Source: Flavobacteriales bacterium (lineage in GTDB: Bacteria > Bacteroidota > Bacteroidia > Flavobacteriales_F > PHOS-HE28). From it: a DNA stretch of 64,000 nucleotides. The stretch covers positions 127,630 through 191,629 of the forward strand of contig JAHBUL010000001.1 in the NCBI GenBank assembly GCA_019638085.1, written 5' to 3'. How positions within the stretch are numbered: the stretch's first letter is position 1; the number at the start of each line of letters is the position of its first letter. Made by a program: the position numbers and the translations under genes. A model generated the notes under the pieces. That model saw only the letters and a program-made list of their open reading frames with translations. It searched no databases and was not told the DNA's origin. Positions 10,352 through 36,218 of the stretch are shown here, one piece after another.

Positions 10352-10858
10352 ATGCCTTCACTCCGGCACATTGGCTTTTTACTGTTGCTACTGGCCGGCG
10401 GGGTCAATGCCTCCGCACAGCACGTACAGGAGTCCGCCTACCAAGAAAAGTTGCAGGGCTTGCTTTCGGACAAGACACCCGTGATCGATGTTCCGCAATT
10501 GGCCAAGAACCCGAAGGTGATGCTGCTGGATGCACGGCCCAAGGAGGAATTTGACGTGAGCCATATGGCCAAGGCGCGCCGCGTCGGCTACGACGACTTC
10601 GACATGGCCAAGGTGAAGGACCTGCCCAAGGACACGGCCATCGTGGTGTACTGCTCCGTAGGCTATCGTAGTGGAAAGGTCACCGAGAAACTGTTGAAGG
10701 CCGGCTTCACCAACGTGAGGAACCTCTATGGAGGCATTTTTGAGTGGGTGAACACAGGCCGCACCGTGGTGGATGATTCCGGAAAGCCGACGGATCGTAT
10801 CCACGCCTACGACAAGAACTGGTCGCGCTGGGTGTTGAAGAGAGAGAAGGTCTATTAG
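10352..10858 (+). CDS. Rhodanese-domain sulfurtransferase, secreted
   Basis: Signal peptide plus rhodanese active-site loop CSVGYRSG. Confidence 0.8.
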   Translation: MPSLRHIGFLLLLLAGGVNASAQHVQESAYQEKLQGLLSDKTPVIDVPQLAKNPKVMLLDARPKEEFDVSHMAKARRVGYDDFDMAKVKDLPKDTAIVVYCSVGYRSGKVTEKLLKAGFTNVRNLYGGIFEWVNTGRTVVDDSGKPTDRIHAYDKNWSRWVLKREKVY

Positions 10859-13644: not shown

Positions 13645-13651
13645 TCGGAAA

Positions 13652-17047: not shown

Positions 17048-17114
17048 TCCCCAATGCCCCGGGCCACTATCAGTTCACCTCTTTGGCGCTACGCTCTTGC
17101 ACTCTCGCCCCTCT

Positions 17115-18564: not shown

Positions 18565-19143
18565 ATGCCAATTGCCTACCACACTGTGGAAAAGCGCGAG
18601 TTCAACGAATGGGTGCATGCGCACACCGGCGACCTGCTCCGTTATGCCAAGACGCGCGTGCGGGAGGAGGCTGAGGCCGAGGACCTGGTTCAATCGGCAT
18701 TCGTTGCCGCTTGGGAAGGACGAAAGAAATACGCGCAGCAAAGCAGCCCGCGCACGTGGCTTTTCTCAATTCTGAAGAACAAGATCGCCGACCATTGGCG
18801 CAAGGCCTACCGGGATCCCGTGGTCCATGGCCAGGAGCCGGTGGACGCGGACTTCTTCGGTGACAACGGGCGCTGGGCCCCGGGACATATACCGGCAGAA
18901 TGGGGACTCGGTGGGCCGGACCAAGCGGAACAGATGCATCGCTTCCTCGCCGATTGTCTCCGGCTATTGCCGTCCCATTGGCGGGCAGTGGTTGAAATGA
19001 AGTTCCTGAAAGACAAGGATGCCGAGTTGATCTGTCAGGAGCTTGGGATCAGCGCGACGAACTACTGGCAACAGATACACAGGGCCAAGGTGCGGCTGCG
19101 CGAATGCATCAGCACCAAGATCACGAAAGACAACCACCACTGA
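18565..19143 (+). CDS. ECF-subfamily RNA polymerase sigma factor
   Basis: Sigma-70 regions 2 and 4 (DLVQSAFVAAWE...; ELICQELGIS...WQQIHRAKVRLR). Confidence 0.85.
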   Translation: MPIAYHTVEKREFNEWVHAHTGDLLRYAKTRVREEAEAEDLVQSAFVAAWEGRKKYAQQSSPRTWLFSILKNKIADHWRKAYRDPVVHGQEPVDADFFGDNGRWAPGHIPAEWGLGGPDQAEQMHRFLADCLRLLPSHWRAVVEMKFLKDKDAELICQELGISATNYWQQIHRAKVRLRECISTKITKDNHH

Positions 19144-19427: not shown

Positions 19428-19766
19428 ATGTCAAAGAAGTACTATGACCCTGTAGACCTCGGCAAATTCGGCGACATCGCCGAGTTCCAGAAACCCATGG
19501 CGGATAAATTCTTCGCATGGTACAATGAAGTCTTCAAGGAGGGCGCTCTTACCGCCCGGGAGAAATCCTTGATCGCACTGGCTGTTGCACATGGCGTGCA
19601 ATGCCCGTATTGCATCGATGCATACAGTACCGATGCACTGGAAAAGGGCTGTAGTGAGGCCCAGATGATGGAGGCCGTGCATGTGGCTGCCGCGATCCGT
19701 GGAGGGGCGACATTGGTGCATGGCACGCAAATGATGAATCACGTAAAGGCCCTGACCGGAGCATGA
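19428..19766 (+). CDS. AhpD/carboxymuconolactone-decarboxylase-family peroxidase-like protein (arsenosugar-biosynthesis-associated type)
   Basis: CxxC motif VQCPYCIDAY in an AhpD-like fold; directly precedes the ArsS gene. Confidence 0.75.
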   Translation: MSKKYYDPVDLGKFGDIAEFQKPMADKFFAWYNEVFKEGALTAREKSLIALAVAHGVQCPYCIDAYSTDALEKGCSEAQMMEAVHVAAAIRGGATLVHGTQMMNHVKALTGA

Positions 19767-20803
19767 AGAGCCTGTTGGCACAACAGGCCCTATTGAGCGC
19801 AGCCTCCGAGCAGCGGCGTGTGCTGGAGGACCCGGGTTCGGCGCTGCCTTTTTTTGCCAAAAAACTGGCCGAGAGCGGATTGCCCGAGTTGCGTGCCACC
19901 GAGCTGGAAGTGCTGCAGCTCAACCTCGGCCGCATGTGCAACCAAACCTGTGTACACTGCCATGTGGATGCCGGGCCGGATCGCAAGGAGCGCATGAGCC
20001 GCGAGGTGATGGAGGATTGCCTGCGCTCCTTGGATGCGCACCCCGTGCGTACCGTGGACCTTACTGGAGGCGCCCCTGAGATGCACCCTGATTTCCGCTG
20101 GTTCGTGGAGCGATTGAGCGAAACGGGATGCCACATCATCGTGCGATGCAACCTCACCATCATCCTGGCCAACAAGAAGTACCACGACCTGCCTGAATTC
20201 TACCGGAAGCACCGCGTGGAAGTAGTGAGCTCGCTCCCGTTCTATACTGCCGACCGCACCGATCGCCAACGCGGGAAGGGCGTGTTCGAGCATTCCATCG
20301 AAGCCCTGAAGATGCTGAACGCCGTGGGCTATGGCATGCCCGATAGCGATCTGGAATTGAACTTGGTCTACAATCCGGCCGGCGCATTCTTGCCGGGATC
20401 ACAGGACGAACTGGAGAAGCAGTTCAAGAGAAGTTTGATGGCGGACCATGGGATCCAGTTCCACAAGCTGTTCGCCATCACCAACCTGCCGATCAGCCGA
20501 TTTCTGGAATACCTCGTGCGCACCGAACATTACGTGGGATACATGGAGCGCTTGGTCAACGCCTTCAATCCCGCTGCGGTGGCCGGTGTGATGTGCCGCA
20601 ACATGGTCTCCGTATCGCACGATGGGAGCATCTACGATTGTGACTTCAACCAGATGCTGGACCTGCCGTTGAGCGCTGGAATGCCACGCCACATCCGCGA
20701 CCTGGCCGATGCGAACGTGGCGGGCAGGCTGATCGTGACCGGCAGACATTGTTACGGATGCACCGCCGGCGCGGGCAGTAGTTGTGGCGGCTCCGTGGCA
20801 TGA
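19763..20803 (+). CDS. arsS: ArsS-family radical SAM protein with Cys-rich C-terminal domain
   Basis: Radical SAM CNQTCVHCH cluster motif and C-terminal CYGCTAGAGSSCGGS tail; ATGA overlap with the upstream gene. Confidence 0.8.
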   Translation: MKSLLAQQALLSAASEQRRVLEDPGSALPFFAKKLAESGLPELRATELEVLQLNLGRMCNQTCVHCHVDAGPDRKERMSREVMEDCLRSLDAHPVRTVDLTGGAPEMHPDFRWFVERLSETGCHIIVRCNLTIILANKKYHDLPEFYRKHRVEVVSSLPFYTADRTDRQRGKGVFEHSIEALKMLNAVGYGMPDSDLELNLVYNPAGAFLPGSQDELEKQFKRSLMADHGIQFHKLFAITNLPISRFLEYLVRTEHYVGYMERLVNAFNPAAVAGVMCRNMVSVSHDGSIYDCDFNQMLDLPLSAGMPRHIRDLADANVAGRLIVTGRHCYGCTAGAGSSCGGSVA

Positions 20804-21408
20804 GTACCAGGCCATTGCTTCTTGTATTTCTGCGCGCTCCCGTGCTGGGGAAAGTAAAAACGCGCTTGGCCGCCACCATGGGGAAGGAAAGGGCGCTGGA
20901 GATCTACAAGCGATTACTTCAGCACACCATTGAACAAGGCGCGGCCTTGGACGTGGACCGTCAGGCGTGGTACGCTGATGAAATTGCCGACCCGGAACCT
21001 TGTGCCGAACTGGGCTACTCGGTGTATGTGCAAGCAGGCAGGGACCTCGGCGATCGTATGAAATGCGCGTTCGGATCAGGTTTCTCCGCCGGTCACGGTC
21101 CCATCATCATTATCGGTACGGACCTCCCCCAGCTGAGCGCCGCTCTGCTTCGCGAAGCCTATATGGCGCTGGAAACCCATGATGCGGTGATCGGTCCCGC
21201 CAACGACGGTGGCTACTACCTATTGGGCTTACGAGAGCCATGTGAGGAGGTCTTCAGCGGGAAGGCTTGGAGTTCGGACAGTGTATATGCACAGACCATT
21301 GAAGACCTGCGTCAGCTAGGTCGCACCTACCATACGCTTCCGACATTGATCGACATTGACACGGCGGAGGACCTCAAAAGCGTTGAAATTCCGGGAGTGG
21401 CTCGCTGA
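20800..21408 (+). CDS. TIGR04282-like (DUF2064) nucleotidyl/glycosyl-transferase-like protein associated with ArsS clusters
   Basis: N-terminus STRPLLLVFLRAPVLGKVKTRL typical of DUF2064; ATGA overlap with arsS. Confidence 0.7.
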   Translation: MSTRPLLLVFLRAPVLGKVKTRLAATMGKERALEIYKRLLQHTIEQGAALDVDRQAWYADEIADPEPCAELGYSVYVQAGRDLGDRMKCAFGSGFSAGHGPIIIIGTDLPQLSAALLREAYMALETHDAVIGPANDGGYYLLGLREPCEEVFSGKAWSSDSVYAQTIEDLRQLGRTYHTLPTLIDIDTAEDLKSVEIPGVAR

Positions 21409-22354: not shown

Positions 22355-22460
22355 TCGCCGATCAGCCGATGAAATACCGATGCCGCTACACAAGTTGCAC
22401 GGAACTCGTGGAACGCATCGTTACCGTCGAGGCAAGGACTCGACCCCTATAAGCATTGAG

Positions 22461-23786: not shown

Positions 23787-23877
23787 AGAGGAGAACCGCC
23801 AAGACGCAAAACACGCCAAGAATTCACGCCATCCGGTGCATTTCACGTTGCGCTTAGCGTCTTTGCGGTAAAAAACA

Positions 23878-25134
23878 ATGACGAACTCAATCTCAGCGGT
23901 AAAGCCTGCCTTCGACGTGGAGGAGATCCGTGCACAATTCCCGATATTGAAGGAACTGGTGCATGGCAAGCCGCTGGTCTATTTCGATAATGCCGCAACC
24001 AGCCAGAAGCCGCGTCGTGTGATCAAGGCCGAAAGCGCCTACTACGCCAAGATCAACGCGAACGTCCATCGCGGAGTGCATACGCTGAGCACCTTGGCCA
24101 CCGATGCACAGGAGGCCGCTCGCGAGATCATCCGCGCGCACATCAACGCGAAGCACGTACATGAGGTGATCTTCACCGCTGGTACGACGGCCAGCATGAA
24201 TCTCGCGGCAAACAGCCTCGGACAATTGTTATTGAAGCCGGGTGATGAAGTACTCATCAGTGGCATGGAACACCACGCGAACATCGTTCCCTGGCAATTG
24301 GTCTGTGAGCGATATGGCGCCACGTTGAAGGTGATCCCCATCACGGATACCGGTGAGTTGGACATAGCAGCAGCTGAACAGATGATCGACTCATCAGCTG
24401 ATCGCTTAAAGATCCTATCGCTCACCCACGTCAGCAACACGCTCGGCACGATCAATCCGGTCAAGCAGTTGATCGCTGACGCGAAAAAGCGGGGCATCGT
24501 TACGGTACTCGATGGTGCCCAAGCGGTGCCGCACATGGCCGTGGATGTACAGGATCTCGGCTGCGACCTGTACGCATTCAGCGGACACAAAATGTATGCA
24601 CCCACCGGCATCGGCGTGCTATATGGTCGCGAGGAATTGCTGGAGCAAATGCCACCTTGGCAAGGCGGCGGCGAGATGATCGACCAGGTCACCTTTGAGA
24701 AGACCACCTTCGCCAAGCTACCCTTCAAGTTCGAGGCGGGTACGCCGCACATCGCGGGCATCATCGGCTTGGGCGAGGCCTTCCGCTGGATGCAGGACTA
24801 TGACCTGGAGGCCATGGCAGCGCACGAACATGCGCTGCAGGAACATGCAACCAAGGAGCTGCTCGCCATCGAGGGCTTGCGCATCATCGGAACAGCGAAG
24901 GAGAAAGTGGGTGTGATCAGCTTCGTCATTGATGGGGTTCATCATTACGACCTAGGCACGCTGCTCGACCAGCAAGGTATCGCGGTGCGCACGGGCCACC
25001 ACTGCACACAGCCGTTGATGGACCACTTCGGTATCAGCGGGACCACGCGGGCAAGCTTCGCACCTTTCAATACGACCGCTGAAGTGGATGCCATGGTGGC
25101 GGCCACGAAGAAGGCGGTGAAGATGTTGCGATGA
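23878..25134 (+). CDS. sufS: Cysteine desulfurase SufS
   Basis: Class-V aminotransferase fold with SufS-type motifs (FSGHKMYAPTGIG; RTGHHCTQP). Confidence 0.9.
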   Translation: MTNSISAVKPAFDVEEIRAQFPILKELVHGKPLVYFDNAATSQKPRRVIKAESAYYAKINANVHRGVHTLSTLATDAQEAAREIIRAHINAKHVHEVIFTAGTTASMNLAANSLGQLLLKPGDEVLISGMEHHANIVPWQLVCERYGATLKVIPITDTGELDIAAAEQMIDSSADRLKILSLTHVSNTLGTINPVKQLIADAKKRGIVTVLDGAQAVPHMAVDVQDLGCDLYAFSGHKMYAPTGIGVLYGREELLEQMPPWQGGGEMIDQVTFEKTTFAKLPFKFEAGTPHIAGIIGLGEAFRWMQDYDLEAMAAHEHALQEHATKELLAIEGLRIIGTAKEKVGVISFVIDGVHHYDLGTLLDQQGIAVRTGHHCTQPLMDHFGISGTTRASFAPFNTTAEVDAMVAATKKAVKMLR

Positions 25135-25553
25135 ACACCTCATTGAAAGAAGCCCAACAGGAGATCGTGGACGAGTTCGCCATGCTCGGCGATTGGCAGG
25201 ACCGCTATGAGCACCTGATCGAGCTGGGGAAGGAACTGCCATTGATCGCACCCGAACTCAAGACGGATGAGAACCTTGTGCGCGGATGCCAGAGCCGGGT
25301 ATGGCTCACCGCTGAAGATCGGGGAGAAGCCATCCATTTCACTGCGGACAGTGATGCGATGATCACCAAAGGCTTAGTAGCGCTGCTGGTACGTGTGCTG
25401 AACGACCGCACGCCCGAGGAGATCATGGGCACTCCGCTCACCTTCATCGATGCCATTGGTCTGCGCGAACACCTTTCACCCAACCGCAGCAACGGCCTCG
25501 TGGCCATGCTGGACCAGATGAAGCGGTATGCGTTGGTTTATTCCTCGAAATGA
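25131..25553 (+). CDS. sufE: Cysteine desulfuration protein SufE
   Basis: SufE family with conserved Cys in RGCQSRVWL; overlaps the sufS stop. Confidence 0.85.
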   Translation: MNTSLKEAQQEIVDEFAMLGDWQDRYEHLIELGKELPLIAPELKTDENLVRGCQSRVWLTAEDRGEAIHFTADSDAMITKGLVALLVRVLNDRTPEEIMGTPLTFIDAIGLREHLSPNRSNGLVAMLDQMKRYALVYSSK

Positions 25554-25573
25554 GAGCATCGGAGATACATACT

Positions 25574-25631
25574 TGTCTTATGTCCAATGTCCCACGCTTT
25601 GCAAGCGTCATAGGACATCGGACATGAGACA
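25574..25631 (+). repeat. Nested palindrome/stem-loop in the sufE-sufT intergenic region
   Basis: 19-nt arms TGTCTTATGTCCAATGTCC / GGACATCGGACATGAGACA (17 Watson-Crick pairs, 1 G-U, 1 mismatch) enclosing the perfect inner palindrome ACGCTTTGCAAGCGT. Confidence 0.6.
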
Positions 25632-25658
25632 ATACCACCGCACCTGCGGCACATTAAA

Positions 25659-25979
25659 ATGACCAACGAAGAGAAAAAGCAATTGGAGGAGCGCGTGATC
25701 ATGATGCTCAAGACCGTCTATGACCCGGAGATCCCCGTGGACATCTACGAGCTGGGCTTGATCTACGACGTGGTGGTCCGCGATGATGCAAGCATCTACA
25801 TCAAGATGACCTTGACCAGCCCGGCTTGTCCGGTGGCAGGCACCCTGCCTGGCGAGGTGGAGGAGAAAGTGGCCCAGACCATGGGGGCAAATGGCGCCAA
25901 GGTGGACCTCACCTTCGAACCGGCTTGGGACCGCAGCATGATGAGCGAGGCAGCGATGCTGGAACTCGGGTTCATGTGA
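25659..25979 (+). CDS. sufT: SUF-system Fe-S assembly protein SufT (DUF59/MIP18 family)
   Basis: DUF59 signature (VYDPEIPVDIYELGLIY...TLTSPACP). Confidence 0.8.
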   Translation: MTNEEKKQLEERVIMMLKTVYDPEIPVDIYELGLIYDVVVRDDASIYIKMTLTSPACPVAGTLPGEVEEKVAQTMGANGAKVDLTFEPAWDRSMMSEAAMLELGFM

Positions 25980-26569: not shown

Positions 26570-28687
26570 ATGCGTTCGGTTTTTTTTCTTTTGACTTTGC
26601 TGTTGCTCGCTCCGGTATTTCCGCAGGTGGGAACACCTTCTGATAGCCTGAACATTCCCGATAGTGAGAATGGTTGGTACCTCAGCCCGCACGGCACCAT
26701 CCGCATCCTGGTGATCTTCGCCGAGATCGACTACGACAAGAACCCCAAGGACGACCCGCAGCCGAAAGCCACCGCCAATTGGCCAAAGGGTGAGCTACCC
26801 ATATGGAAGGATGACCTCTTCGACCCATTCCCTTCGGAACAACCTAAGGCGCAGGTGACGCGGTACTATCACGAAATGAGCCTGGGGCAGTTCACCGTGC
26901 TGGGCGATTACGTGGATCAGCTGATGATCATTCGCGAGAGTGAACAGCGCAACCTGAGGAATTGGAGCGGCATGGCCTGGGAGGAGGCCAACAAAATGGG
27001 TATGCTGCAAACTGCACATAACCTGTCCATTGAGGATTTCGATATGTGGACGGATGGAGGGCGACCGGGTATGCCCAAGCTGAACGTTCCTGATGATCCG
27101 CACAGTTACGATCATGTGATGGTGATCCTGCGCAACAGCAGCCTTACCCACGGGCAAGGCAGCACCGATGCAGGAAGTGCGGGCCTGCTGTTCGGTTATC
27201 CCAGCGACACCCAAAGTCGCTTCGGTGCAATGAACAGCCTTCCTTTTGCGATCCTGAAGCACGAGTTCAACCACCTTCTATTGGGCGGGAACAACTTCCA
27301 TAGCGGTGGAGGTAATGCCCCGACCTTCACCGGATATTTCATTCCTGTACAAGGCGGCTGGAGCTTGATGGGCGCGGCGAACAGCTCGTTGCTCACCGCC
27401 AGTGCCTGGGATCGCGACCGCTTGGGATGGAGACCGGAGGGAAGCCGCTTTCACATTCGTGCAAGTGATCGGAATGACGCAGAGGTGAATGGTGATCTGG
27501 ATCCATTGGCTGGGGATACCGGGATCTATGTTATACGTGATTTCATCACCAGTGGCGATGCTATTCGCATTCGTATGCCTTTCCTTGAAGCGGATGAATA
27601 CCCCCAATGGCTGTGGCTGGAGAACCACCAGACCAAGAGCAATAACGGTTGCCAAATGGATGTGTTCCATTATGAAGAGATGGACTGTGTGAAGCCTGCG
27701 GTGCCCGGCATCTATGCGCAGATGCAGGTGGACAAGGAAAAGAAGACCGGGAGTGGGATCTATGGAGGGCATGCCGATTACCTGCGGCCCGTATTGGCGA
27801 ACGGGAACTTCGATCAGCGCTTGCGCGGCGATACCATCACCTTCAAATGCTTGTGGCCGGGGCCGACCGAACCCTATGTGGTAAAGCGTGCTTGGGCCAA
27901 TCCGTTGAGCGGAACACAGGATCAGGAATTCCCACTGTTCGATAAGAACGGCGATGGCAAGCTTACCCGGAAGGAAGCGAACGCTCCACGTGTGGGCATC
28001 CATGATGGAAAGATGGTGGATGATGCCGCGTACTTGGGTAGTTCGCGTCAGGTGTTCACCCCACAAGGCAATAGGCGTATTGGCATGGGTACCAACCCCT
28101 CCAGTGCGAACATGCTAAGCTTGGCGACCAACATGAGCATGGAGCAGAACCGGGGGAAGAAGCCGGACAACCGCACCGTGTATCTGAACGGCATCAGCGT
28201 GGAGCTGCTGGAACAGCGCAGCGATGGCGCTATTGTACTCCACATCCGGAGTGGCGATACGCGCCTGACGGAAGATGTGCGCTGGTGTGCCGACAGCATC
28301 GTGCTACCCGGACTGAAGGGGTACAAGGGCACCGCGCTCACCTTGGCAACGAGGAAAACGTTGAAGGTGGATCGCTCCGGTACGCCCACGCGTATGGCGC
28401 AACAAGGTGAGAAGGAAGACGGAACGTTCTGGTTCAGTCCGCCCACGCAATTCACCGTGGCAGCGGATGCACGGATGGTGCTGGAACCCAAAGCGAAGCT
28501 TCAGTTACTGAACAACTCAGTGATGCACCTGATGCCGGGTTCCGAGCTGGTGTTGGGCCGAAAAGCAAAGCTGGATGTCCAGGCCGGTTCACAATTGGTG
28601 CTGCATGGCGATGCATCCCTACAGGCAAAGCCGTGTGTTCTTCGCAAGCTGCGGAAGAATGGACGGATCGTGAACGTTCCCGAGTGA
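26570..28687 (+). CDS. Secreted putative zinc metalloprotease (HExxH) of unassigned family
   Basis: Signal peptide MRSVFFLLTLLLLAPVFPQ; HEFNH zinc-binding motif; no T9SS CTD seen. Confidence 0.55.
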   Translation: MRSVFFLLTLLLLAPVFPQVGTPSDSLNIPDSENGWYLSPHGTIRILVIFAEIDYDKNPKDDPQPKATANWPKGELPIWKDDLFDPFPSEQPKAQVTRYYHEMSLGQFTVLGDYVDQLMIIRESEQRNLRNWSGMAWEEANKMGMLQTAHNLSIEDFDMWTDGGRPGMPKLNVPDDPHSYDHVMVILRNSSLTHGQGSTDAGSAGLLFGYPSDTQSRFGAMNSLPFAILKHEFNHLLLGGNNFHSGGGNAPTFTGYFIPVQGGWSLMGAANSSLLTASAWDRDRLGWRPEGSRFHIRASDRNDAEVNGDLDPLAGDTGIYVIRDFITSGDAIRIRMPFLEADEYPQWLWLENHQTKSNNGCQMDVFHYEEMDCVKPAVPGIYAQMQVDKEKKTGSGIYGGHADYLRPVLANGNFDQRLRGDTITFKCLWPGPTEPYVVKRAWANPLSGTQDQEFPLFDKNGDGKLTRKEANAPRVGIHDGKMVDDAAYLGSSRQVFTPQGNRRIGMGTNPSSANMLSLATNMSMEQNRGKKPDNRTVYLNGISVELLEQRSDGAIVLHIRSGDTRLTEDVRWCADSIVLPGLKGYKGTALTLATRKTLKVDRSGTPTRMAQQGEKEDGTFWFSPPTQFTVAADARMVLEPKAKLQLLNNSVMHLMPGSELVLGRKAKLDVQAGSQLVLHGDASLQAKPCVLRKLRKNGRIVNVPE

Positions 28688-28696
28688 GCCTGTTGA

Positions 28697-30001
28697 TCAG
28701 GTTCCGATGGCCATCGGCTTCCTGAACCCGCGTGCCTCCCGGATGATGAACGCTCCCAGTACAACGTATTCGATCGCTAGCCACCAGTACGGCTGTGCAT
28801 ACGGCACACTGCCATAGGTGAGGTAGGTGGGCACGATCAGTAGTGACCAGAGGACAGGCCATCGCCAACGGGTCAGCGGCGCTAAAGCCACCAACGGCAG
28901 GATGTACCACGGATGCACCACTTGCGAGCAGCTCAGGTAGATGGCCAGCAGCCACAACATCGCCTCCGGCCATGGCGTACGCCTGGTTCTCCACAGCCAA
29001 AGCGAATACGCACCTAAGCCGATCAATGCGATCGCGCCCAGCAGCCCGGTGCCTTTCACCAGGGCATCACCAAACAGCCGGCGCAGCCCTTCGAACAGAA
29101 CGCCGTTGAATTCGAGATAGCTCACAAAGAGCTTAAGGATGCTGCCAAGGTGCGCGAAGAACCCGGGAGTGTAGAGCGGGATCCAAGAGGCCACGAAGAG
29201 GATGAGCGTGATCGCGAAAAAGCGGACCGAGCGCCGCCAGCCGAGCTGCGAGGGGATCCATGCGAGTAGGATCAAGGGCCACAACTTGGCGGCTGCGGCG
29301 ATGGCGATGAGCACCGCTGCCGCATCGTAGCGCTTCTGGCGGAACAGGTGGATCGCCCAAAGGCAAGGCGCGATCATCAGCACTTCGCTGTGCAGGTTCA
29401 CGTTGAATTCCATCAGCACCAACGGATTCAGTGCGTAGAGGCCCACCTTCCGCACGCGATCGGGTGCATCCTTCAAGAGCACGCCCAGCGCGGTGATCGT
29501 GGCCAGGTCGAAGACGATGGACACGAAGCGCAGCACGAGCGTGGAGTACCATATATCACCTTGGCCCAAGCCTGCCGCGATCGCGTATACCAACTGCGCG
29601 ACCGGCGGGTACACGGAATGGAAGTGCGGTGAATTCAGCTTCGCATACAGTGCGGGCGTGAAGACCTGCGGCATTGTTTTCACCAGTTCATCCGGCGTGA
29701 ACGCAAATGGGGAGATCCCGTGGATCGAGCAGAGGCCGTCCCAGATGTAGCGGTAGTGATCGTCCGTCCAGGTGATCGGCGCGAGGAAGAGCAGTACCCG
29801 CAGCACGACCGCCACGACCATGAGCTGCTTCCATGTCAGTTGCGATCGGCGATCGACCCACAGATAGGTGAAGAAGGCCGTGCCGAAACCGAGCAAGAGT
29901 TGCAGGCTTTGCGAGCGTGATGGACCATAGCCCAGAAAGAGCACGGCAGCAGCAAGCAAAATGATCGGGACGAGGCGTTGAGCGATGCGCGTGCTCATCA
30001 T
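28697..30001 (-). CDS. GT-C fold membrane glycosyltransferase (DUF2029/GT87-like mannosyltransferase family)
   Basis: Polytopic membrane protein resembling DUF2029; start at internal Met 30001, overlapping the stop of the upstream GT2 gene. Confidence 0.65.
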   Translation of the reverse strand: MMSTRIAQRLVPIILLAAAVLFLGYGPSRSQSLQLLLGFGTAFFTYLWVDRRSQLTWKQLMVVAVVLRVLLFLAPITWTDDHYRYIWDGLCSIHGISPFAFTPDELVKTMPQVFTPALYAKLNSPHFHSVYPPVAQLVYAIAAGLGQGDIWYSTLVLRFVSIVFDLATITALGVLLKDAPDRVRKVGLYALNPLVLMEFNVNLHSEVLMIAPCLWAIHLFRQKRYDAAAVLIAIAAAAKLWPLILLAWIPSQLGWRRSVRFFAITLILFVASWIPLYTPGFFAHLGSILKLFVSYLEFNGVLFEGLRRLFGDALVKGTGLLGAIALIGLGAYSLWLWRTRRTPWPEAMLWLLAIYLSCSQVVHPWYILPLVALAPLTRWRWPVLWSLLIVPTYLTYGSVPYAQPYWWLAIEYVVLGAFIIREARGFRKPMAIGT

Positions 30002-31470
30002 GTGGTAGTGCGCAGCGAATGCACCACGGAGTACCAGCCCACCAGCCCGAAGCCGAGCGCCAACATGATGTGGTAGGGCAAGAGCCCGAGGTCGCCGGTG
30101 CGGAAGCCGATCACGATGCCCCATACCGCATAAGCCGCGATCGCGCCTTCCAACACAGTGATCGGACTGATCACGCTCTTCCAATAGCCATCACGGCGGA
30201 TCGCCTTGTCGCCTTTGTCGCCACCGAGCTTCGGGGTCCGCAAGAACGGAGTGCGACGTCCTGCGTAGCCCTCCAGTACAGCGATGGCATTGTGCAGCGA
30301 AAGGCCCATGCTTACGGAAAGGAACAACGGGAAGGTCCACAGGAACCGCAGGGTGCCGCGCCATTCGGGCATGTCCTTGCGGTGGGCGATCCAATAGAAC
30401 ACCACCAGCACCAGCAAGGCGAACGTGAAGACGATCGCAATGTTGAACAGCATGCGCAGTTCGGGATGGTCCTGTTTCACCAGCAGCACGGGTACGCTAA
30501 GCAGGGCCGTGCCGAGGATGCACACGAAAACGGTGCTGTTCATCAAGTGGAAGAGCGCGTGGACCTTCGTGGAGAATGACAACGCGGGATCGCGGAGCAC
30601 GCTCGGTAGGTTTTTCACCACGCACTCCGCCGCGCCCTTGTTCCAGCGGTATTGCTGCGTCTTCAGCGCGTTCATGGCAGCGAGCAGTTCGGCGGGCGAC
30701 ACCACGTTCTCCAAGTAGTGGAACTGCCAACCTTTCAACTGTGCGCGGTAGCTCAGGTCGAGGTCCTCGGTGAGCGTATCGGGTCGCCAACCGCCCGCAT
30801 CCGTGATGCATGCCTTGCGGCAAACACCCGCCGTGCCGTTGAAATTGATGAAGCGGCCCATGGTGTTCCGGCCCACCTGCTCTACGGAGAAGTGCGCGTC
30901 CAGCCCGAAGGCCTGCAGGCGCGTGAGCAGGTTGCTGTCGCGGTTGATGTGGCCCCAGCAGGTCTGCACCATGCCGATCCCCGGATCGTTGAACCACGGG
31001 ACCACCGCTTGGAGCAGGTCCGTTGGTGGAAGGAAATCGGCATCGAAAATGGCGATCAGTTCACCCTTCGCGCGTTCCGTTCCGTAGGCCAACGCACCGG
31101 CCTTGAAGCCCGTGCGGTCCGGCCTGCGGATCAGCGTTATGTCAATGCCCTGCGCCTGCCAATGCGCAACGCGTTCCGCGGCCAACCGGGTGGTCTCGTC
31201 CGTGCTATCGTCCAGCACCTGCACCTCGAAGCGGTCGTGCGGCCAATCCATTTTCGCCACTTGGTCGATCAGCCGTTCCACCACGTGGCGCTCGTTGTAC
31301 AGGGGCAATTGCACCGTTACCAATGGCCGCTTGCCGAAGACGGGCGGGGGCATCATCCGCACGTGCTTTTCCTTGTGCAGGTAGGCCCAGGTGAGCTGCA
31401 ACTGTACCACGCTGAAGAGCAGGATGAAGCTCAACAACAGGCCGTAAACGATGAGCAGTGCGATGGCCAT
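29998..31470 (-). CDS. Processive family-2 glycosyltransferase (cellulose/chitin-synthase-like, membrane-embedded)
   Basis: DDSTDET and downstream D motifs, QQYRW (QxxRW) motif, N-terminal TM plus C-terminal TM bundle; start at internal Met 31470. Confidence 0.75.
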   Translation of the reverse strand: MAIALLIVYGLLLSFILLFSVVQLQLTWAYLHKEKHVRMMPPPVFGKRPLVTVQLPLYNERHVVERLIDQVAKMDWPHDRFEVQVLDDSTDETTRLAAERVAHWQAQGIDITLIRRPDRTGFKAGALAYGTERAKGELIAIFDADFLPPTDLLQAVVPWFNDPGIGMVQTCWGHINRDSNLLTRLQAFGLDAHFSVEQVGRNTMGRFINFNGTAGVCRKACITDAGGWRPDTLTEDLDLSYRAQLKGWQFHYLENVVSPAELLAAMNALKTQQYRWNKGAAECVVKNLPSVLRDPALSFSTKVHALFHLMNSTVFVCILGTALLSVPVLLVKQDHPELRMLFNIAIVFTFALLVLVVFYWIAHRKDMPEWRGTLRFLWTFPLFLSVSMGLSLHNAIAVLEGYAGRRTPFLRTPKLGGDKGDKAIRRDGYWKSVISPITVLEGAIAAYAVWGIVIGFRTGDLGLLPYHIMLALGFGLVGWYSVVHSLRTTT

Positions 31471-32162
31471 CAGCGGTATTTGATGATGGTGGTGATGATC
31501 TTCCAGCCCGCCAGCACCGAGCCCTTCACCGTGCCGCTGATCTTCGAAAAGCCGATCCGCTTGCGGTAATCCACGGGCACTTCCGTGATCCGCAGGCGCT
31601 GTTTCGCGGCCTTCAGTTGCATCTCCACCGTCCACCCGAAGGTACGATCGCGCATGCCCATGGCCTGAAGCGCTTCCCAACGCACGGCACTGAACGGGCC
31701 GAGATCAGTGTATTTCACGCCGTAGAAAAGCTTGAGCATTCGTGTTGCCAACCAGTTGCCGAAGATCTGCTGGGGCATCATGCTGCCCGCATCACGATGG
31801 CCCAACGCACGCGAACCGATCACGAAGTCGGCATGTCCCTCGACGATCGGCGTGACCACTTCCGTCATCTGCTCCGGGTGGTCGCTGTTGTCCGCGTCGA
31901 TGAAAACCACGATGTCCGGCGGCGGCTCGTGCGTGGCTACCTGCGCAATGCCCTTCAAGCAGGCATTGCCGTAGCCGCGCTCCGGCTGGTCCACCACGAT
32001 GGCGCCCGCAGCCCGGGCCATCTCGCTGGTCTTGTCGCTGCTGGCGTTGTTCACCACCACGATATGGCGCACCAATCCTTTAGGGATGTCGCGCACCACC
32101 AGGCCCACGGCCTCCTGCTCATTGAAAGCGGGGATGATGACGTCGATGATCGGTGCTGGCAT
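31470..32162 (-). CDS. Family-2 glycosyltransferase, dolichyl/polyprenyl-phosphate sugar synthase-like
   Basis: N-terminus IIPAFNEQEAV and DAD-type motif FIDADNSD; stop overlaps the start of the next gene. Confidence 0.75.
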   Translation of the reverse strand: MPAPIIDVIIPAFNEQEAVGLVVRDIPKGLVRHIVVVNNASSDKTSEMARAAGAIVVDQPERGYGNACLKGIAQVATHEPPPDIVVFIDADNSDHPEQMTEVVTPIVEGHADFVIGSRALGHRDAGSMMPQQIFGNWLATRMLKLFYGVKYTDLGPFSAVRWEALQAMGMRDRTFGWTVEMQLKAAKQRLRITEVPVDYRKRIGFSKISGTVKGSVLAGWKIITTIIKYR

Positions 32163-32303: not shown

Positions 32304-33878
32304 CTAACGCAACGTTGCGCCAGTCTTCCCGATGGCGATTGGATCGCTGCTGAAACGCCCAGGGACCTTTCCGTTCTCCAACTTCAGTACTCCCCTTGGG
32401 CACGCCGCTGCGCAGATGCCGCAACCCACGCAGCTGGAGCGCACGATGTTCTCGCCGCGTTGCGCGTAGCTGCGCACGTCGATGCCCATTTCGCAGTAGG
32501 TGCTGCAGTTGCCGCAGCTGATGCACTGCCCGCCGTTGGTGGTGATGCGGAAGCGCGAGAAGAAGCGCTGTTGCATGCCGAGGATCGCCGCCATGGGGCA
32601 ACCGAAGCGACACCACACGCGGCTGCCCATCAGCGGATAGAAGCCCACGCCTATCACGCCGTTGAAGATGGAGCCGATCGCGAAGCCGTAGGTTTTCCGC
32701 AGCGGATAGCTCTGCACGAAGAAGATGTCGCCGCGACCCGTGAAGTAGGCCCACGCCGTGAAACCGATGAGCAGCACCGCGACGCCGATGCCGACGAAGC
32801 GGGCGGTCCGGTCGATCTCCTTCACCATGCCGGGCCGGATCAGCAGTACGGCGGCCACCGCACCGAGGACGATCACGATGATGCCGAGCAACATGCCGCG
32901 CGTCACCCAAAAGCCTTTCGCACTGTCGCTGCCGAGGTAGCTGTAGATCAGCGCTGCCGTCATCAACACCGCGAAGACGAGCACCGCATGGATCACCCAG
33001 CGCTCGATCTTCCAGGCCTTCACGCTCTTGTCGCTGAGCTGCCGGAAGGGATCGCCCGCCGTTTCCGCCAAGCCGCCGCAACCGCAGACCCACGAGCAGT
33101 ACCAGCGCTTGCCGTAGAAGTAGGTGAGGATAGGCGAAATGATGAAGATCATCGCCACGCCGAAGAGCAGCATGAACAGGCCGAAACCGCCCGCGTCGAT
33201 CATGCCCTTCACGCTCCAATCATCGAAGAAGTAGTAGTTGAGCGGCCACATGTTCTTGAAGTCGTTGTACGGCAAACTGAGCCGCGCCAATACTTCCGGG
33301 ATCAAGAATGCGAAGCCGAGCTGGAAGAACATCACCGAGCTGGTGCGCACCACTTCGTACTTGTTGTGCCGGTATTTCAAAATGAATTTGATGCCCATTG
33401 AGAGGATGGCCACCGTGTAGAGCGTGCCGTAGACGAACCACTGCGAGGCCGGGTTGCCACTTAGAAGCCTGCTGAGCGGATCGAAGAGCGCGATGATGCC
33501 GGTGTTCGCTTTGCCATCGCCAGTGAGGCCGAGGTATTGCGGAAAGAAATAAAGCACCACGTAGAATCCCGTGAGCAGGATGCCGACCACCCACGCCACC
33601 GCGCCGCGCGAGGTGAGGCTATTGTGCCAAACGCCGTCGTTCTTGATGCCCGCCGGCCGATGCGCATACGAGCGCCAAGCATAGCCCACCGCGCCAACGC
33701 CGATGGCGAGCAGGGCTGAAGTGAGCCAAAGGCCCGCATGCGGAATTTGCTCCATCGGCAGGCTCATCAGCAAGCCGAGAACGCCCAAGGCCGCCAACGC
33801 CAGCGCGCCTTTTTGCAAGCCGTCCAAGCTCCCGCTGTGCGGTGCCGCGATCGAGAGGCTGTGGACCGAACGGCTCAT
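32304..33878 (-). CDS. Polytopic 4Fe-4S polyferredoxin of the NapH/CcoG(FixG) family
   Basis: Membrane Cys motifs CSWVCGCGG and CRFGCP plus a C-terminal 2x[4Fe-4S] ferredoxin domain (CISCGNCSTYC...CVGCGICAAACP). Confidence 0.75.
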   Translation of the reverse strand: MSRSVHSLSIAAPHSGSLDGLQKGALALAALGVLGLLMSLPMEQIPHAGLWLTSALLAIGVGAVGYAWRSYAHRPAGIKNDGVWHNSLTSRGAVAWVVGILLTGFYVVLYFFPQYLGLTGDGKANTGIIALFDPLSRLLSGNPASQWFVYGTLYTVAILSMGIKFILKYRHNKYEVVRTSSVMFFQLGFAFLIPEVLARLSLPYNDFKNMWPLNYYFFDDWSVKGMIDAGGFGLFMLLFGVAMIFIISPILTYFYGKRWYCSWVCGCGGLAETAGDPFRQLSDKSVKAWKIERWVIHAVLVFAVLMTAALIYSYLGSDSAKGFWVTRGMLLGIIVIVLGAVAAVLLIRPGMVKEIDRTARFVGIGVAVLLIGFTAWAYFTGRGDIFFVQSYPLRKTYGFAIGSIFNGVIGVGFYPLMGSRVWCRFGCPMAAILGMQQRFFSRFRITTNGGQCISCGNCSTYCEMGIDVRSYAQRGENIVRSSCVGCGICAAACPRGVLKLENGKVPGRFSSDPIAIGKTGATLR

Positions 33879-35176
33879 GCGATAACGGTATTTCCTTGTT
33901 TGAATGAAGCACGGATGGCGGGCTCGGAACGGTGGTGGAGCTCGGGGTCGAATGCGGCTTCGTGCAAGTGTTCCACCACGTGATCCACGGTCGTTCTTTC
34001 GCGCAGCCAGCGATCGAACACTTCATGCCGCAAACGGAAGCCGAAGCTGTTCACGCCGTGCAGCACGCGGTTTTTCGCGTTCCACACCAAGTGCAGCGCG
34101 GACTTTCCGTTGGGATGTTCCCAGTAATGTCCGGCCTCGCCGTCCTGCAATTCGTTGCGCACCCAGCCGTAGGTCTGGTATTCAATGTCGAAGAACTTCG
34201 CGCTGTTGAACCAGATGCCGGGATCGTACGCGGTGCGATCGCCAGTGAGCGTGCGGGCCACGGTCTCTCCCATCAATCGACCGGTGTACCACACCTGCTC
34301 GATGTTCTTCCGCTGCGGATCGGGATGTTCGTGGAATTCCACGCAGTCGCCGATCGCGAAGACGTCCGCTGCGCTGGTCTCCAAGTAGGTGTTCACCAGC
34401 ACGCCCTTTTTCGTTTTGATGCCCGGACTTTCCTTCAGCCACTTGATGTTCGGGTGTACGCCGACCGCAAGCCCGACAAAGCCGCAATCGATGGTGTCGC
34501 CGCCCTTCGTTCGCACCGCTTGCACGCGTCCGTCAGCACCCGCGAGCACTTCTTCCAATTCCGTGTTGAAATGCAGGTCCACGCCATGCTCGCGCATGTG
34601 CCGCGTGATCAGGTCCGCTTCCTGCTTTGGAAGAATGCCGCCCCAGAAACTGTCCTCGCGCACGAAGAAGGTCACTTCAATGTTCCGCGTGCGCAGCATC
34701 TCCGCCATCTCCACGCCGATCAATCCGCCGCCCACGATCACCGCGCGCGAAATGCCCTTCGTGTTGGCTTCCATCGCTTCCACGTCCTGCAAGCTGTACA
34801 GGCCCTGCACGCCGGGCAGGTCCTGCCCGGGCCAGCCGAACATATTGCTCTCGCTGCCGGTGGCGATGATGAGTTTGTCGTAGTCGACCGCACTGCCATT
34901 GCTCAACATCACGGATTTTTTTTCGGTGTCGATCCGCGCCACCTTGGCGTGCTTCAACGCGATGCGGTTCTTTGCCCAGAAATGGTCCTCGTAGGGCTTG
35001 ATGTCGCGATAGCGCATGTGGCCCATGTACAGGTACATCAGCGCGGTGCGGCTGAAGAAATGCTCGCTTTCCTTGCCGATCACGGTGATCCGCGCATCGC
35101 TCCGTTTGCGGATGTGCCGCGCCGCCGTGATGCCGCTGATGCCGTTGCCGATGATGACGATGCGATCGTTGCTCAT
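33875..35176 (-). CDS. FAD/NAD(P)-dependent pyridine-nucleotide-disulfide-family oxidoreductase
   Basis: N-terminal IVIIGNGISG Rossmann motif and a second NAD(P) motif VIVGGGLIG; ATGA overlap with the polyferredoxin gene. Confidence 0.8.
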   Translation of the reverse strand: MSNDRIVIIGNGISGITAARHIRKRSDARITVIGKESEHFFSRTALMYLYMGHMRYRDIKPYEDHFWAKNRIALKHAKVARIDTEKKSVMLSNGSAVDYDKLIIATGSESNMFGWPGQDLPGVQGLYSLQDVEAMEANTKGISRAVIVGGGLIGVEMAEMLRTRNIEVTFFVREDSFWGGILPKQEADLITRHMREHGVDLHFNTELEEVLAGADGRVQAVRTKGGDTIDCGFVGLAVGVHPNIKWLKESPGIKTKKGVLVNTYLETSAADVFAIGDCVEFHEHPDPQRKNIEQVWYTGRLMGETVARTLTGDRTAYDPGIWFNSAKFFDIEYQTYGWVRNELQDGEAGHYWEHPNGKSALHLVWNAKNRVLHGVNSFGFRLRHEVFDRWLRERTTVDHVVEHLHEAAFDPELHHRSEPAIRASFKQGNTVIA

Positions 35177-35606: not shown

Positions 35607-36218
35607 ATGCGTAACTGGACCACGACCATTCCTCTTTTGCTTGCCACGTTTTGTGGCACGGTGGAAGCGTATGCGCAAGAACATCCTTTTCTTTCCGAGT
35701 ATTCGCTGAACGAACTTTCCAATGGCGTGCTGGTCACTTGGACCATCCATGGTGGAAGCACATGCGACGGACAAGAAGTGCAGCGCTCCACGGACAGCCT
35801 GAACTTTACGACGGTGCATGTGATCCAAGGGATCTGCGGAAGCCCGGAAAGTTCCACGCCCTACATCTGGTTCGACCCTACACCGCCCGAACTCAGCAAG
35901 GTCTACTACAAATTGAAATTGGGTTTTGATGGATACAGCTCGGTGAAATCCGTGTTCTTCGCCCAGCTCAACGAAAGTGAACAGCGCTTCTTCCCCAATC
36001 CTGTGACGGATGTGGCGACCTTGGTGGTGGATGCAAAGCCGAACACCCCGGTGGACCTGCTTGTTTTCGATGGGTCCGGGAAACTGGTGGTTAGCTTGAA
36101 CGGACTGAACGGGCCGACCTTGGATGTGCCCGTGCGTAAGCTACCGGCCGGGGTGTACAGTTATCGTGCGAGCACGCCGACAGGCCGCTCATTCAGTGGT
36201 CGCTTCGTGAAAAACTGA
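35607..36218 (+). CDS. Small T9SS-secreted protein (type-A CTD)
   Basis: Signal peptide plus C-terminal FFPNPVTDVATLVV...GVYSY CTD. Confidence 0.7.
   Translation: MRNWTTTIPLLLATFCGTVEAYAQEHPFLSEYSLNELSNGVLVTWTIHGGSTCDGQEVQRSTDSLNFTTVHVIQGICGSPESSTPYIWFDPTPPELSKVYYKLKLGFDGYSSVKSVFFAQLNESEQRFFPNPVTDVATLVVDAKPNTPVDLLVFDGSGKLVVSLNGLNGPTLDVPVRKLPAGVYSYRASTPTGRSFSGRFVKN

Follow-up and report, generated by a model that had tools for sequence, protein, structure and literature searches.

Gene organisation at the locus

The window, by which we mean the whole 64-kb stretch of DNA that was analysed, carries three overlapping glycosyltransferase genes on its minus strand, preceded by a pair of redox genes. 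Two groups of plus-strand genes, which we infer to be linked to the trio, lie on the far side of it.

10352..10858, plus strand: rhodanese NF045521 'rhoda_near_glyco' (188 bits, cut-off 145); putative link to the trio
19428..21408, plus strand: TIGR04169 peroxidase-like protein, ArsS radical SAM enzyme and TIGR04282/DUF2064 protein, above NCBIfam cut-offs; putative link to the trio
19763-20803, plus strand: the ArsS radical SAM enzyme (NCBIfam, 448 bits, cut-off 300)
about 20782-21408, plus strand: the TIGR04282/DUF2064 protein, CofC-like (NCBIfam, 202 bits, cut-off 134)
28697..30001, minus strand: GT-C, 434 aa, GT87 / MptA_B family; ATG 30001-29999, stop at 28697
29998..30001, minus strand: ATGA junction between the GT2mem stop and the GT-C start, 4-nt overlap; reads acATGAtg
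29998..31470, minus strand: GT2mem, 490-aa membrane GT2 with a minimal BcsA/Csl-type look; ATG 31470-31468, stop TGA 30000-29998
31468..31472, minus strand: TGATG junction between the GT2small stop and the GT2mem start, single common base 31470; reads cgcTGATGgcc
31470..32162, minus strand: GT2small, 230-aa soluble GT2, dolichyl/polyprenyl-phosphate hexose synthase-like; ATG 32162, stop TGA 31472-31470
32304..33878, minus strand: membrane polyferredoxin, 524 aa, NapH/MauN-like (Pfam Fer4_5, Fer4_9 and related models)
33875..35176, minus strand: FAD/NAD(P)H oxidoreductase of the ferredoxin/rubredoxin-reductase type, 433 aa (Pyr_redox_2, 183 bits)

Reading the sequence confirmed the coordinates that a first-pass annotation had given for the three minus-strand reading frames. 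The longest ORFs reported by the ORF finder begin at upstream TTGs, and we favour the ATG starts since the alignments with homologues (A2, A3) begin at residue 1. Both junctions had been described as ATGA-type, which is correct for the 4-nt overlap at 29998-30001 but not for the junction at 31470, a TGATG with a 1-nt overlap. Such start/stop overlaps are frequent in operons and unremarkable alone; the more-than-chance signal is the conserved gene order in other genomes, rather than the overlaps.

The polyferredoxin and FAD oxidoreductase genes were found upstream of the trio, as had been described, and are joined to each other by an ATGA overlap. A gap of 141 nt, for which no promoter or terminator call could be made, separates them from GT2small. 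The polyferredoxin has about seven TM segments, a C-terminal 2x[4Fe-4S] domain and the cysteine motifs CSWVC (residue 261) and CX3CP (CRFGCP, residue 423), and it scores 49 bits, below the cut-off, with the NCBIfam NapH/MauN model TIGR02163. The best PDB matches of the flavoprotein are 3lxd, rubredoxin reductase 3fg2 and the toluene/biphenyl dioxygenase ferredoxin reductases. The locus is flanked by genes for an M6-like protease, DUF2480, Suf proteins, a T9SS-sorted protein (35607-36218) and DUF1508. A dedicated flippase of the GtrA, MATE or Wzx type is absent from the unit and its verified flanks, as had been claimed.

GT2small resembles lipid-phosphate sugar synthases

GT2small matches Pfam PF00535 at 69.3 bits (cut-off 23.3) and carries a DxD motif (DAD, residues 89-91). 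Its top NCBIfam match is AglJ (TIGR04182), at 130 bits over residues 8-228 where the equivalog cut-off is 325, followed in kind by the Dol-P hexose transferase NF041391, at 72 bits against a cut-off of 375. Among solved structures, residues 6-211 are matched by chain residues 25-234 of 374 in the dolichyl-phosphate-mannose-synthase-type entry DPMS 5mlz, a segment that we take to be the DPMS catalytic domain. By these comparisons the protein appears closest in kind to dolichyl/polyprenyl-phosphate hexose synthases, while standing outside the equivalogs. The hydropathy scan finds no hydrophobic or TM segment anywhere in its 230 aa, neither a membrane anchor nor interface helices, so that the use of a lipid-phosphate acceptor is at most putative. 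The label 'DPM-like' given at first reading is thus right in kind, though the protein scores well below the equivalog cut-offs and has no membrane anchor.

The match to AglJ raises the question of a protein glycosylation system such as archaeal AglJ/AglD-AglS or actinobacterial Ppm1-Pmt, in which secreted or T9SS proteins would receive the sugar of a lipid-phosphate donor from the GT-C enzyme. T9SS-sorted proteins do flank the locus, both in the window (35607-36218) and in L079. We consider this explanation very improbable.

GT2mem has a BcsA-like membrane architecture

GT2mem matches four Pfam families (PF13641 at 89 bits, PF00535, PF13632 and PF13506). The motifs DDS87, DAD143, TED234 and QQYRW272 are invariant among 38 homologues (alignment A3), and in a profile alignment the DD, KAG, DxD, TED and QxxRW elements line up with those of E. 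coli BcsA. The hydropathy scan places one TM at the N-terminus and four at the C-terminus; the protein further comprises a GT-A domain and interface helices, and was modelled with AF2 at pLDDT 89. Using this model as a Foldseek query, BcsA entries (9b8v_E, 4p00) are retrieved with E-values of 1e-18 to 1e-20 and TMq of 0.67-0.69, the best being 9b8v_E (E 5.6e-20, TMq 0.69). The modelled architecture, with interface helices and TM helices after the GT domain, is BcsA-like. The results bear out the first-pass view of the middle gene as a membrane GT2 with D,D,D and QQYRW motifs and flanking TMs, which is upheld by Pfam, motifs and fold alike.

The same annotation had called this enzyme processive. 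In favour of this label stand the BcsA fold, the BcsA catalytic motifs and a loop resembling the BcsA gating loop: the invariant F409-x-R411-T412-P413-K414 (FLRTPK), in the stretch that joins the third interface helix to the following TM. We set this loop against the BcsA gating loop FxVTxK by position and motif only, and regard the correspondence as tentative. On the other hand, the non-processive PcManGT (6yv7) has the same fold in Foldseek, so a BcsA-like fold does not prove processivity, and the GT21 Pfam model also matches. A role as a processive synthase is therefore best described as plausible, as judged from sequence and model.

Alternatively, GT2mem may glycosylate a lipid instead of making a polymer, much as GT21 enzymes or glucosyl-diacylglycerol synthases do, and the GT-C enzyme would extend this glycolipid to a lipoglycan resembling PIM/lipomannan or to a membrane lipid free of phosphorus. 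The match to PF13506 (Glyco_transf_21) exceeds its cut-off, 37.8 against 21.7 bits, although it overlaps the stronger PF13641 and PF13632 matches, and this family is also listed among those of the homologues without being marked as weak. The lipid-acting GT2 HpnI aligns with GT2mem end to end, if weakly, the closest sequence relatives of the GT-C enzyme (PimE, MptA/B) act on glycolipids, and in Pontibacter the trio has genes for a neutral ceramidase and a patatin as neighbours. Against this, BcsA is the best fold match across both the catalytic and the TM parts, the TM-TM-interface helix-loop-TM-TM order with its FxRTPK loop appears to mirror the BcsA gating-loop region, and the top NCBIfam matches are PgaC (116 bits, cut-off 422) and CelA (108 bits, cut-off 699), both below equivalog level. 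We regard a lipid glycosyltransferase as possible but rather doubtful. Such an activity would fit with or without the arsenic link discussed below.

The GT-C enzyme has the ALG3/GPI-MT-I/PimE fold

The assignment of the third gene to the GT-C (DUF2029/GT87) class was upheld by domain, profile and fold searches. Its product matches PF09594 (GT87) at 34 bits (Pfam cut-off 25), shows multiple TM segments in the hydropathy scan, in keeping with a multi-TM GT-C enzyme, and has the ALG3/GPI-MT-I/PimE fold. A conserved acidic motif, TWTDDHYRYIWDG, follows the third helix. Across an alignment of sequences of 25-79% identity, conservation is complete at D81 and D88 and reaches at least 90% at D80. The acidic residues are predicted to lie in the first extracytoplasmic loop, the periplasmic side being assigned from the positive-inside pattern only. 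The GT-C of the window gives no match to the NCBIfam MptA and MptB models at E<0.01; its homologue in L079 reaches 43 bits with MptB (cut-off 40).

The trio belongs to a conserved five-gene unit

We assessed gene order in 80 independently sampled metagenome loci, which form the base of the adjacency counts. GT2small lies directly upstream of GT2mem in 60 of 70 loci, GT-C follows GT2mem in about 65-70%, with direct adjacency in 36 of 56, and the FAD oxidoreductase and polyferredoxin genes precede the GT2 pair in 35 of 50. The full order FAD oxidoreductase-polyferredoxin-GT2small-GT2mem-GT-C is present in 22/40, and in L017 all five genes are joined by 4-nt overlaps. When GT2mem sequences are collapsed at 70% identity, 27 clusters remain, which include GT2small in 20, GT-C in 18, the redox pair in 9 and ArsS-set genes in 11. 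The trio is kept in Hymenobacter, Pontibacter, a Cryomorphaceae MAG and other distant contigs (29-58% identity).

These results show that the five-gene membrane unit is conserved across Bacteroidota and widespread in environmental members of the phylum. Absence of the trio as a conserved unit in related genomes had been named as grounds for rejecting the first-pass proposal; conservation in fact extends far beyond close relatives. The association is not universal: one lineage has GT-C at a site apart from the GT2 pair (L009 vs L022-24), and GT2mem stands alone among housekeeping genes in at least eight loci. In Pontibacter, the trio is adjoined by the neutral ceramidase and patatin genes mentioned above.

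The unit is repeatedly fused with ArsM/ArsS genes

In L079 and L098 the unit continues a single-strand operon with the order TIGR04169-ArsS-rhodanese-TIGR04282-PNP-ArsM-DUF547-TIGR04283-(FAD oxidoreductase-polyferredoxin)-GT2small-GT2mem(-GT-C) and gaps of no more than 70 nt. PNP here denotes a purine nucleoside phosphorylase, and the ArsS-set members of these operons score above their NCBIfam cut-offs. The run in L098 comprises 12 genes, several loci have same-strand runs of twelve to thirteen genes with equally short gaps, and L104 also combines ArsS-set families and the glycosyltransferase unit in one operon. In six loci (L029, L031, L034, L035, L094, L095) genes for the NF045521 rhodanese and DUF2064 directly follow GT-C. 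At least one ArsS-set gene is present in 54 of 104 loci, and in 7 of the 21 loci with full flanks on both sides. Operon fusion of the five-gene unit with the ArsM/ArsS set is thus recurrent in many relatives.

In the window itself, the TIGR04169-ArsS-TIGR04282 genes lie 7.3 kb from the GT-C gene on the opposite strand, with the Suf operon in between; the TIGR04169 peroxidase-like protein scores 174 bits (NCBIfam cut-off 120). ArsM, PNP, DUF547 and TIGR04283 were not found in the 64-kb window by tblastn with the L079 proteins as queries, and ArsM, PNP and TIGR04283 may be located elsewhere in the genome. The first-pass annotation had left the ArsS-set genes at 19.4-21.4 kb unconnected to the trio; in other loci the same families are seen fused with the glycosyltransferase unit. 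It had also presented the trio as a pathway complete in itself and the redox pair as a secondary matter. Its three family assignments are upheld, but the genes form a five-gene unit repeatedly fused with the ArsM/ArsS set.

The genomic link could still be incidental if the unit made a stand-alone envelope glycan. GT2mem would then make and export a beta-glycan, GT-C would decorate it from a polyprenyl-P hexose such as mannose, and the ArsS/ArsM and redox genes would do no more than share its location or its regulation, as in a response to phosphate or arsenate stress. Consistent with this, roughly one in two trio loci with good flanks lacks any ArsS-set gene within 10 kb, Spirosoma and Rhodocytophaga carry CMD-ArsS alone without the trio, the two gene groups of the window are separated in distance and strand as described, and relatives of the GT-C enzyme weakly match the mannosyltransferases MptA and MptB. 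However, mere co-location fits poorly with the long, tightly spaced same-strand runs and with the rhodanese and DUF2064 genes placed directly after GT-C in six loci. Linkage to the ArsS set also recurs in different arrangements, and its 11 of 27 clusters lie far above the ~1% expected if a few genes were scattered at random over a 4-Mb genome. We judge a stand-alone glycan to be unlikely.

Proposed role and relation to known systems

The proposal to which we give even weight is that the trio supplies the membrane end of a glycoconjugate assembly unit conserved in Bacteroidota and, more speculatively, that the pathway it serves is probably ArsS-linked (arsenosugar-type), because the unit shares an operon with ArsM, ArsS, PNP, TIGR04282 and the GT2 TIGR04283 in many genomes. 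We read the sequences most readily as an assembly line for a glycoconjugate that works in the periplasm and depends on a lipid carrier. The catalytic domain formed by GT2small would stay in the cytoplasm, probably docking on GT2mem or the membrane itself, and would load a sugar from a nucleotide donor onto polyprenyl phosphate. GT2mem, as a minimal BcsA/Csl-type inverting GT2 at the inner membrane, would build a beta-linked chain or glycosylate a membrane lipid and present the product to the periplasmic side, where GT-C may add further residues from a flipped polyprenyl-phosphate sugar. The NAD(P)H-ferredoxin-reductase-type flavoprotein and the NapH-like polyferredoxin would feed electrons into some membrane-associated step. 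In the ArsS-linked case, what is attached to a membrane or envelope acceptor might be a 5-deoxyribosyl sugar derived from ArsS, or else a glycan or lipid that accompanies it.

In the literature searched, only the ArsM and ArsS steps of the arsenosugar pathway have been shown experimentally (cited in PMC12159101). It is conceivable, though we hold it with low confidence, that the five-gene unit performs the missing late membrane-bound steps of bacterial arsenosugar/arsenolipid assembly via a lipid carrier. Dimethylarsinoyl-adenosine made by ArsM and ArsS would be turned by PNP and the CofC-like TIGR04282 protein into an activated arsenoribose, which a GT2 would load onto polyprenyl phosphate; the BcsA-like enzyme would supply a lipid or glycan acceptor, on which GT-C would then install the arsenoribose outside the cytoplasm.

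The literature searched yielded nothing on the trio and one mechanistic precedent only, that of a lipid-phosphate pentofuranose synthase acting with a GT-C (Kelly et al. 2024, PMC11127046). The unit resembles these pentofuranose systems, GtrB-GtrA-GtrC and CsbB-GtcA-YfhO in pairing a lipid-phosphate sugar synthase with a GT-C outside the cytoplasm, and the arsenosugar is a ribofuranoside, the sugar class that the pentofuranose systems handle. Unlike such three-component periplasmic glycosylation systems, it has no flippase gene, its synthase is a TM-less GT2 rather than a two-TM GtrB or UbiA-type enzyme, and it incorporates a BcsA-like GT2 and a redox pair as integral members.

GT2mem shares with BcsA/Csl-type processive synthases the GT-A motifs, interface helices and C-terminal helix order given above, and its FxRTPK may take the place of the BcsA FxVTxK. 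Unlike BcsA, it has 490 aa, one N-terminal TM where BcsA has four, no BcsB-like partner and no PilZ domain, the latter because the protein stops directly after its last TM; its CelA and PgaC scores also set it well apart from those equivalogs. Compared with the Corynebacterineae system of Ppm1 with PimE, MptA and MptB, the GT-C has 12-18% identity to solved relatives and belongs to a different phylum, and no phosphatidylinositol-mannoside genes lie near the trio. As in the ArsM/ArsS arsenosugar biosynthesis known from Synechocystis, the families TIGR04167, TIGR04169, TIGR04282, TIGR04283 and NF038099 are represented, with members sharing an operon with the unit in L079, L098, L104 and others, and three of them in the window. 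Unlike any described arsenosugar gene set, the trio and redox pair are included here, and the window lacks ArsM, PNP and TIGR04283.

Every enzyme of the unit is of a known kind. No pathway described in the literature searched combines a lipid-phosphate-sugar-type GT2 that lacks TMs with a minimal BcsA-like synthase, a GT-C of the PimE/ALG3 fold and an electron input from NAD(P)H to a membrane Fe-S protein. The unit's operon fusion with ArsM/ArsS makes it a candidate gene set for finishing arsenosugars or arsenosugar lipids after the ArsS step, which, if true, would constitute a lipid-carrier route for an organoarsenic sugar. The hypothesis is testable in culturable Hymenobacter and Pontibacter, and should the arsenic link prove wrong, the unit still points to an envelope glycoconjugate, as yet uncharacterised, in a major bacterial phylum.

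Finally, a 139-aa ORF that is absent from the 64-kb window precedes GT2small in three other loci (L074, L079, L090). It has only a weak match to PF04973 (NMN-transporter family) and possibly encodes a membrane protein.

Organization of the gene unit

Three minus-strand open reading frames at 28697–32162 encode two GT2 glycosyltransferases and a GT-C enzyme, and a pair of redox genes lies directly upstream of them:

33875–35176: FADox, FAD oxidoreductase, 433 aa
32304–33878: polyFd, membrane polyferredoxin, 524 aa
31470–32162, minus strand: GT2small, soluble GT2, 230 aa (ATG at 32162, TGA at 31472–31470)
29998–31470, minus strand: GT2mem, membrane GT2, 490 aa (ATG at 31470–31468, TGA at 30000–29998)
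28697–30001, minus strand: GT-C, GT87/MptA_B family, 434 aa (ATG at 30001–29999, stop at 28697)

The first-pass annotation had described this trio as joined by ATGA-type overlaps of one and four nucleotides. Its coordinates proved exact and both overlap lengths hold; the four bases in common between GT2mem and GT-C (29998–30001) are indeed ATGA, while GT2small and GT2mem share one base at 31470 in a TGATG junction. An ORF finder extended two of the trio ORFs to upstream TTG codons. Since homologues align from the ATG-encoded methionine, we consider the ATG starts, and hence the overlaps, to be real. The FADox and polyFd genes overlap by ATGA, and a 141-nt gap separates polyFd from the trio. 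Neither promoter and terminator scans nor a search for the Bacteroidota -7 motif TAnnTTTG yielded hits above chance in this gap or in the unit surroundings.

Only 9 nt separate the GT-C stop from the end of a convergent gene (26570–28687, plus strand), which encodes a secreted 705-aa protein with a weak M6-metalloprotease domain. This gene still adjoins GT-C in a lineage with a relocated GT2 pair (loci L009 and L013).

Enzymes encoded by the unit

Domain, profile and fold matches bear out the initial assignment of the three glycosyltransferases as a DPM-like GT2, a membrane GT2 with QxxRW and a GT-C enzyme; the middle enzyme may be processive, and any donor sugar is putative. GT2small carries a GT-A/GT2 domain (PF00535, 69 bits) with DAD at residues 89–91. 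The full-length relatives that score best are archaeal dolichyl-phosphate hexosyltransferases (AglJ, 130 bits over residues 8–228; NF041391, 72 bits), both scores being under the equivalog cut-offs, and the P. furiosus Dol-P-Man synthase 5mlz matches residues 6–211. A hydropathy scan of all 230 residues found no hydrophobic segment. Because it has no anchor, and GT2mem is its constant and translationally coupled neighbour, GT2small probably works docked to GT2mem.

GT2mem has five TM segments, one at the N-terminal end and four at the C-terminal end. Its AlphaFold model (pLDDT 89) finds BcsA as top fold match across the catalytic and membrane parts (9b8v_E, E 5.6e-20, TMq 0.69), followed by PcManGT, hyaluronan synthases, chitin synthase and plant CesA. 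In a profile of 38 homologues, DDS87, KAG123, DAD143, TED234 and QQYRW272 align with the E. coli BcsA motifs. Past the QxxRW helix the model runs through two TM helices, an amphipathic helix, a loop with an invariant F409-x-RTPK414 and two further TM helices. We take this to be the order around the BcsA gating loop, the identity of the motif being presumed rather than aligned. Unlike BcsA, GT2mem has no PilZ domain, and its PgaC (116 bits) and CelA (108 bits) scores are both far under cut-off. GT2mem may instead be a lipid glycosyltransferase and not a polymer synthase: a GT21 model matches, HpnI aligns end to end, albeit weakly, and the nearest relatives of the neighbouring GT-C act on glycolipids. 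The GT-C is much nearer to ALG3, GPI-MT-I and PimE than to Pmt or the oligosaccharyltransferases AglB, STT3 and PglB, which makes protein glycosylation by the trio the least likely of the readings considered.

FADox belongs to the ferredoxin/rubredoxin-reductase group (PDB matches 3lxd and 3fg2). The NapH-like polyFd combines a 2x[4Fe-4S] domain with a single CX3CP motif and a further cysteine pair, CSWVC.

The GT-C family comprises 801 representatives (50% clustering) at E<=1e-30. Some homologues carry a C-terminal class I methyltransferase (proteins P0042, P0043, P0044 and P0075; L014, 9773–11605; L017, 8001–9851), and the length of such fusions, ~600–630 aa, is shared by roughly one in twelve of the top 150 representatives. 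We rejected the identification of this domain with ArsM, its matches being generic class I (MftM-, MetW- and UbiE-like). One fusion comes from the planctomycete Candidatus Uabimicrobium. A locus search with a narrower GT-C alignment recovered only close Flavobacteriales relatives and one Planctomycetota fusion, next to which GT2 neighbours are absent.

Conservation of the trio and of the five-gene unit

The trio is a conserved unit and is kept well beyond its own lineage. The complete order FADox-polyFd-GT2small-GT2mem-GT-C is found in close Flavobacteriales MAGs (48–79% GT-C identity). The trio also persists at six distant loci (29–58% identity), namely in Hymenobacter volaticus, in one Pontibacter, in a MAG of the Cryomorphaceae and on three further contigs; three of the six have the redox pair directly upstream. 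At L017, 4-nt overlaps run through all five genes.

GT2mem alone (44–55% identity) then served to draw a sample of 80 metagenome loci, which we annotated with HMMs from the window proteins. GT2small lies directly upstream of GT2mem in 60 of 70 loci, and FADox and polyFd lie upstream on the same strand in 35 of 50. GT-C is adjacent downstream in 36 of 56 and within 7 kb downstream in 26 of 36, and all five genes occur together in 22 of 40. Grouped at 70% identity, the GT2mem sequences form 27 clusters, with GT2small in 20, GT-C in 18 and the redox pair in 9.

One lineage has the GT2 pair and GT-C at different loci (L022–24 versus L009), and GT2mem stands without partner genes, amid housekeeping genes, in at least eight loci (e.g. 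L072, 9551–11470; L037, 9935–11419), indicating that GT2small-GT2mem is the tightest core. The L072 copy has a CarboxypepD_reg-like domain at its N-terminus.

Linkage to arsenosugar genes

Genes annotated by NCBIfam as 'arsenosugar biosynthesis' adjoin the trio in distant genomes, and the window itself carries several of them:

19428–21408, plus strand: tight run of TIGR04169 peroxidase-like, ArsS radical SAM and TIGR04282/DUF2064 genes, all above NCBIfam cut-offs
10352–10858, plus strand: rhodanese NF045521 'rhoda_near_glyco' (188 bits, cut-off 145)

The start of the TIGR04169 gene is uncertain, as the longest ORF runs from 19104 (220 aa) and only its last 112 aa match the family. ArsM, PNP, DUF547 and TIGR04283 are absent from the 64-kb window. 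At the metagenome locus L079, one same-strand run comprises TIGR04169, ArsS, rhodanese, TIGR04282, PNP, ArsM (NF038099, 562 bits, cut-off 400), DUF547, a TIGR04283 GT2, a 139-aa ORF, GT2small, GT2mem and GT-C. L098 has this type of run with FADox-polyFd ahead of GT2small, giving twelve genes with every gap <=70 nt; L104, L091, L068, L061, L083, L058 and L089 are arranged similarly. In six loci GT-C is followed directly by rhodanese and DUF2064.

At least one gene of this set is present in 54 of 104 loci and in 11 of the 27 GT2mem clusters, while the chance that a few genes in a ~4 Mb genome lie no more than 10 kb from a given point is about 1%. The arrangements vary, which also speaks against plain descent from one ancestral layout. 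In the window a Suf operon sits between the arsenosugar genes and the trio. We rejected the view that the proximity is a by-product of this operon, since the linkage occurs without Suf genes in Hymenobacter, Pontibacter, L016, L020 and metagenome loci.

The link does not hold everywhere, and the trio may serve an ordinary envelope glycan pathway whose only tie to the arsenic genes is co-regulation or co-location; no gene of the set occurs in roughly half of the trio loci with good flanks, and Spirosoma and Rhodocytophaga have CMD-ArsS without the trio. Gene neighbourhood suggests a link of the trio and redox pair to ArsS/ArsM, and the locus is better described as a unit of five genes within a larger, modular system of Bacteroidota. 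It is built from known enzyme kinds, in a combination that matches no pathway described in the literature searched.

DUF547 genes occur inside the ArsM-TIGR04283 run and also recur directly upstream of FADox on either strand (L020, L031, L044, L049, L053 and many more). In Hymenobacter volaticus (L015), the only trace of ArsS between rhodanese and CMD is a 70-bit remnant at ~12347–12842, perhaps of a decayed gene, with no ArsS called at this position.

Proposed mechanism

In our model, GT2small would load a sugar onto polyprenyl phosphate on the cytoplasmic side, GT2mem would make a beta-linked chain or glycolipid in the inner membrane, and GT-C would add a sugar from the flipped lipid donor at the periplasmic face. 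FADox and polyFd would form a path for electrons between NAD(P)H and an acceptor associated with the membrane; candidate uses, which we do not rank, are ArsS activation, reduction of pentavalent arsenicals and modification of the lipid carrier.

Extracytoplasmic addition of pentofuranoses has a precedent in systems that combine a lipid-phosphate synthase with a flippase and a GT-C (Kelly et al. 2024, PMC11127046). The trio locus has no flippase gene, in agreement with the first-pass annotation. The 139-aa ORF between TIGR04283 and GT2small (L079, 8878–9297; also L074 and L090), absent from the window, has only a weak match to the NMN-transporter family PF04973; it is a possible membrane protein and could be a candidate small flippase. 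We found no literature on the trio or on late arsenosugar steps, Kelly et al. 2024 being a precedent only.

More speculatively, operon order suggests a chemical route to the lipid-carrier/GT-C arm. ArsM would produce dimethylarsenite, which ArsS would convert to 5'-deoxy-5'-dimethylarsinoyl-adenosine, a reaction cited in PMC12159101. The phosphorylase would then release arsenoribose-1-phosphate, the CofC-like TIGR04282 protein would form a nucleotide sugar, a GT2 would transfer it, and the lipid-carrier/GT-C arm would install the sugar outside the cytoplasm.

Other neighbours in the window

Suf genes are split around the glycosyltransferase unit, a layout also seen in L001–L003, and several unit genes encode Fe-S proteins. 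The Suf genes and further neighbours lie at these positions:

21614–25979, plus strand: SufC, SufD, SufS, SufE and SufT-like
36708–38156, minus strand: SufB
12133–14641, plus strand: EgtB-like (FGE-sulfatase and DinB_2), then EgtD-like histidine methyltransferase (Methyltransf_33, 320 bits)
16256–19143, just upstream of the ArsS run: FMN-reductase-like, alpha/beta-hydrolase-OsmC fusion (minus strand) and ECF-type sigma factor

The EgtB-like and EgtD-like genes, near the rhodanese and ArsS genes, look like an ergothioneine-type pair, and the surroundings at 16256–19143 are redox/stress-flavoured.
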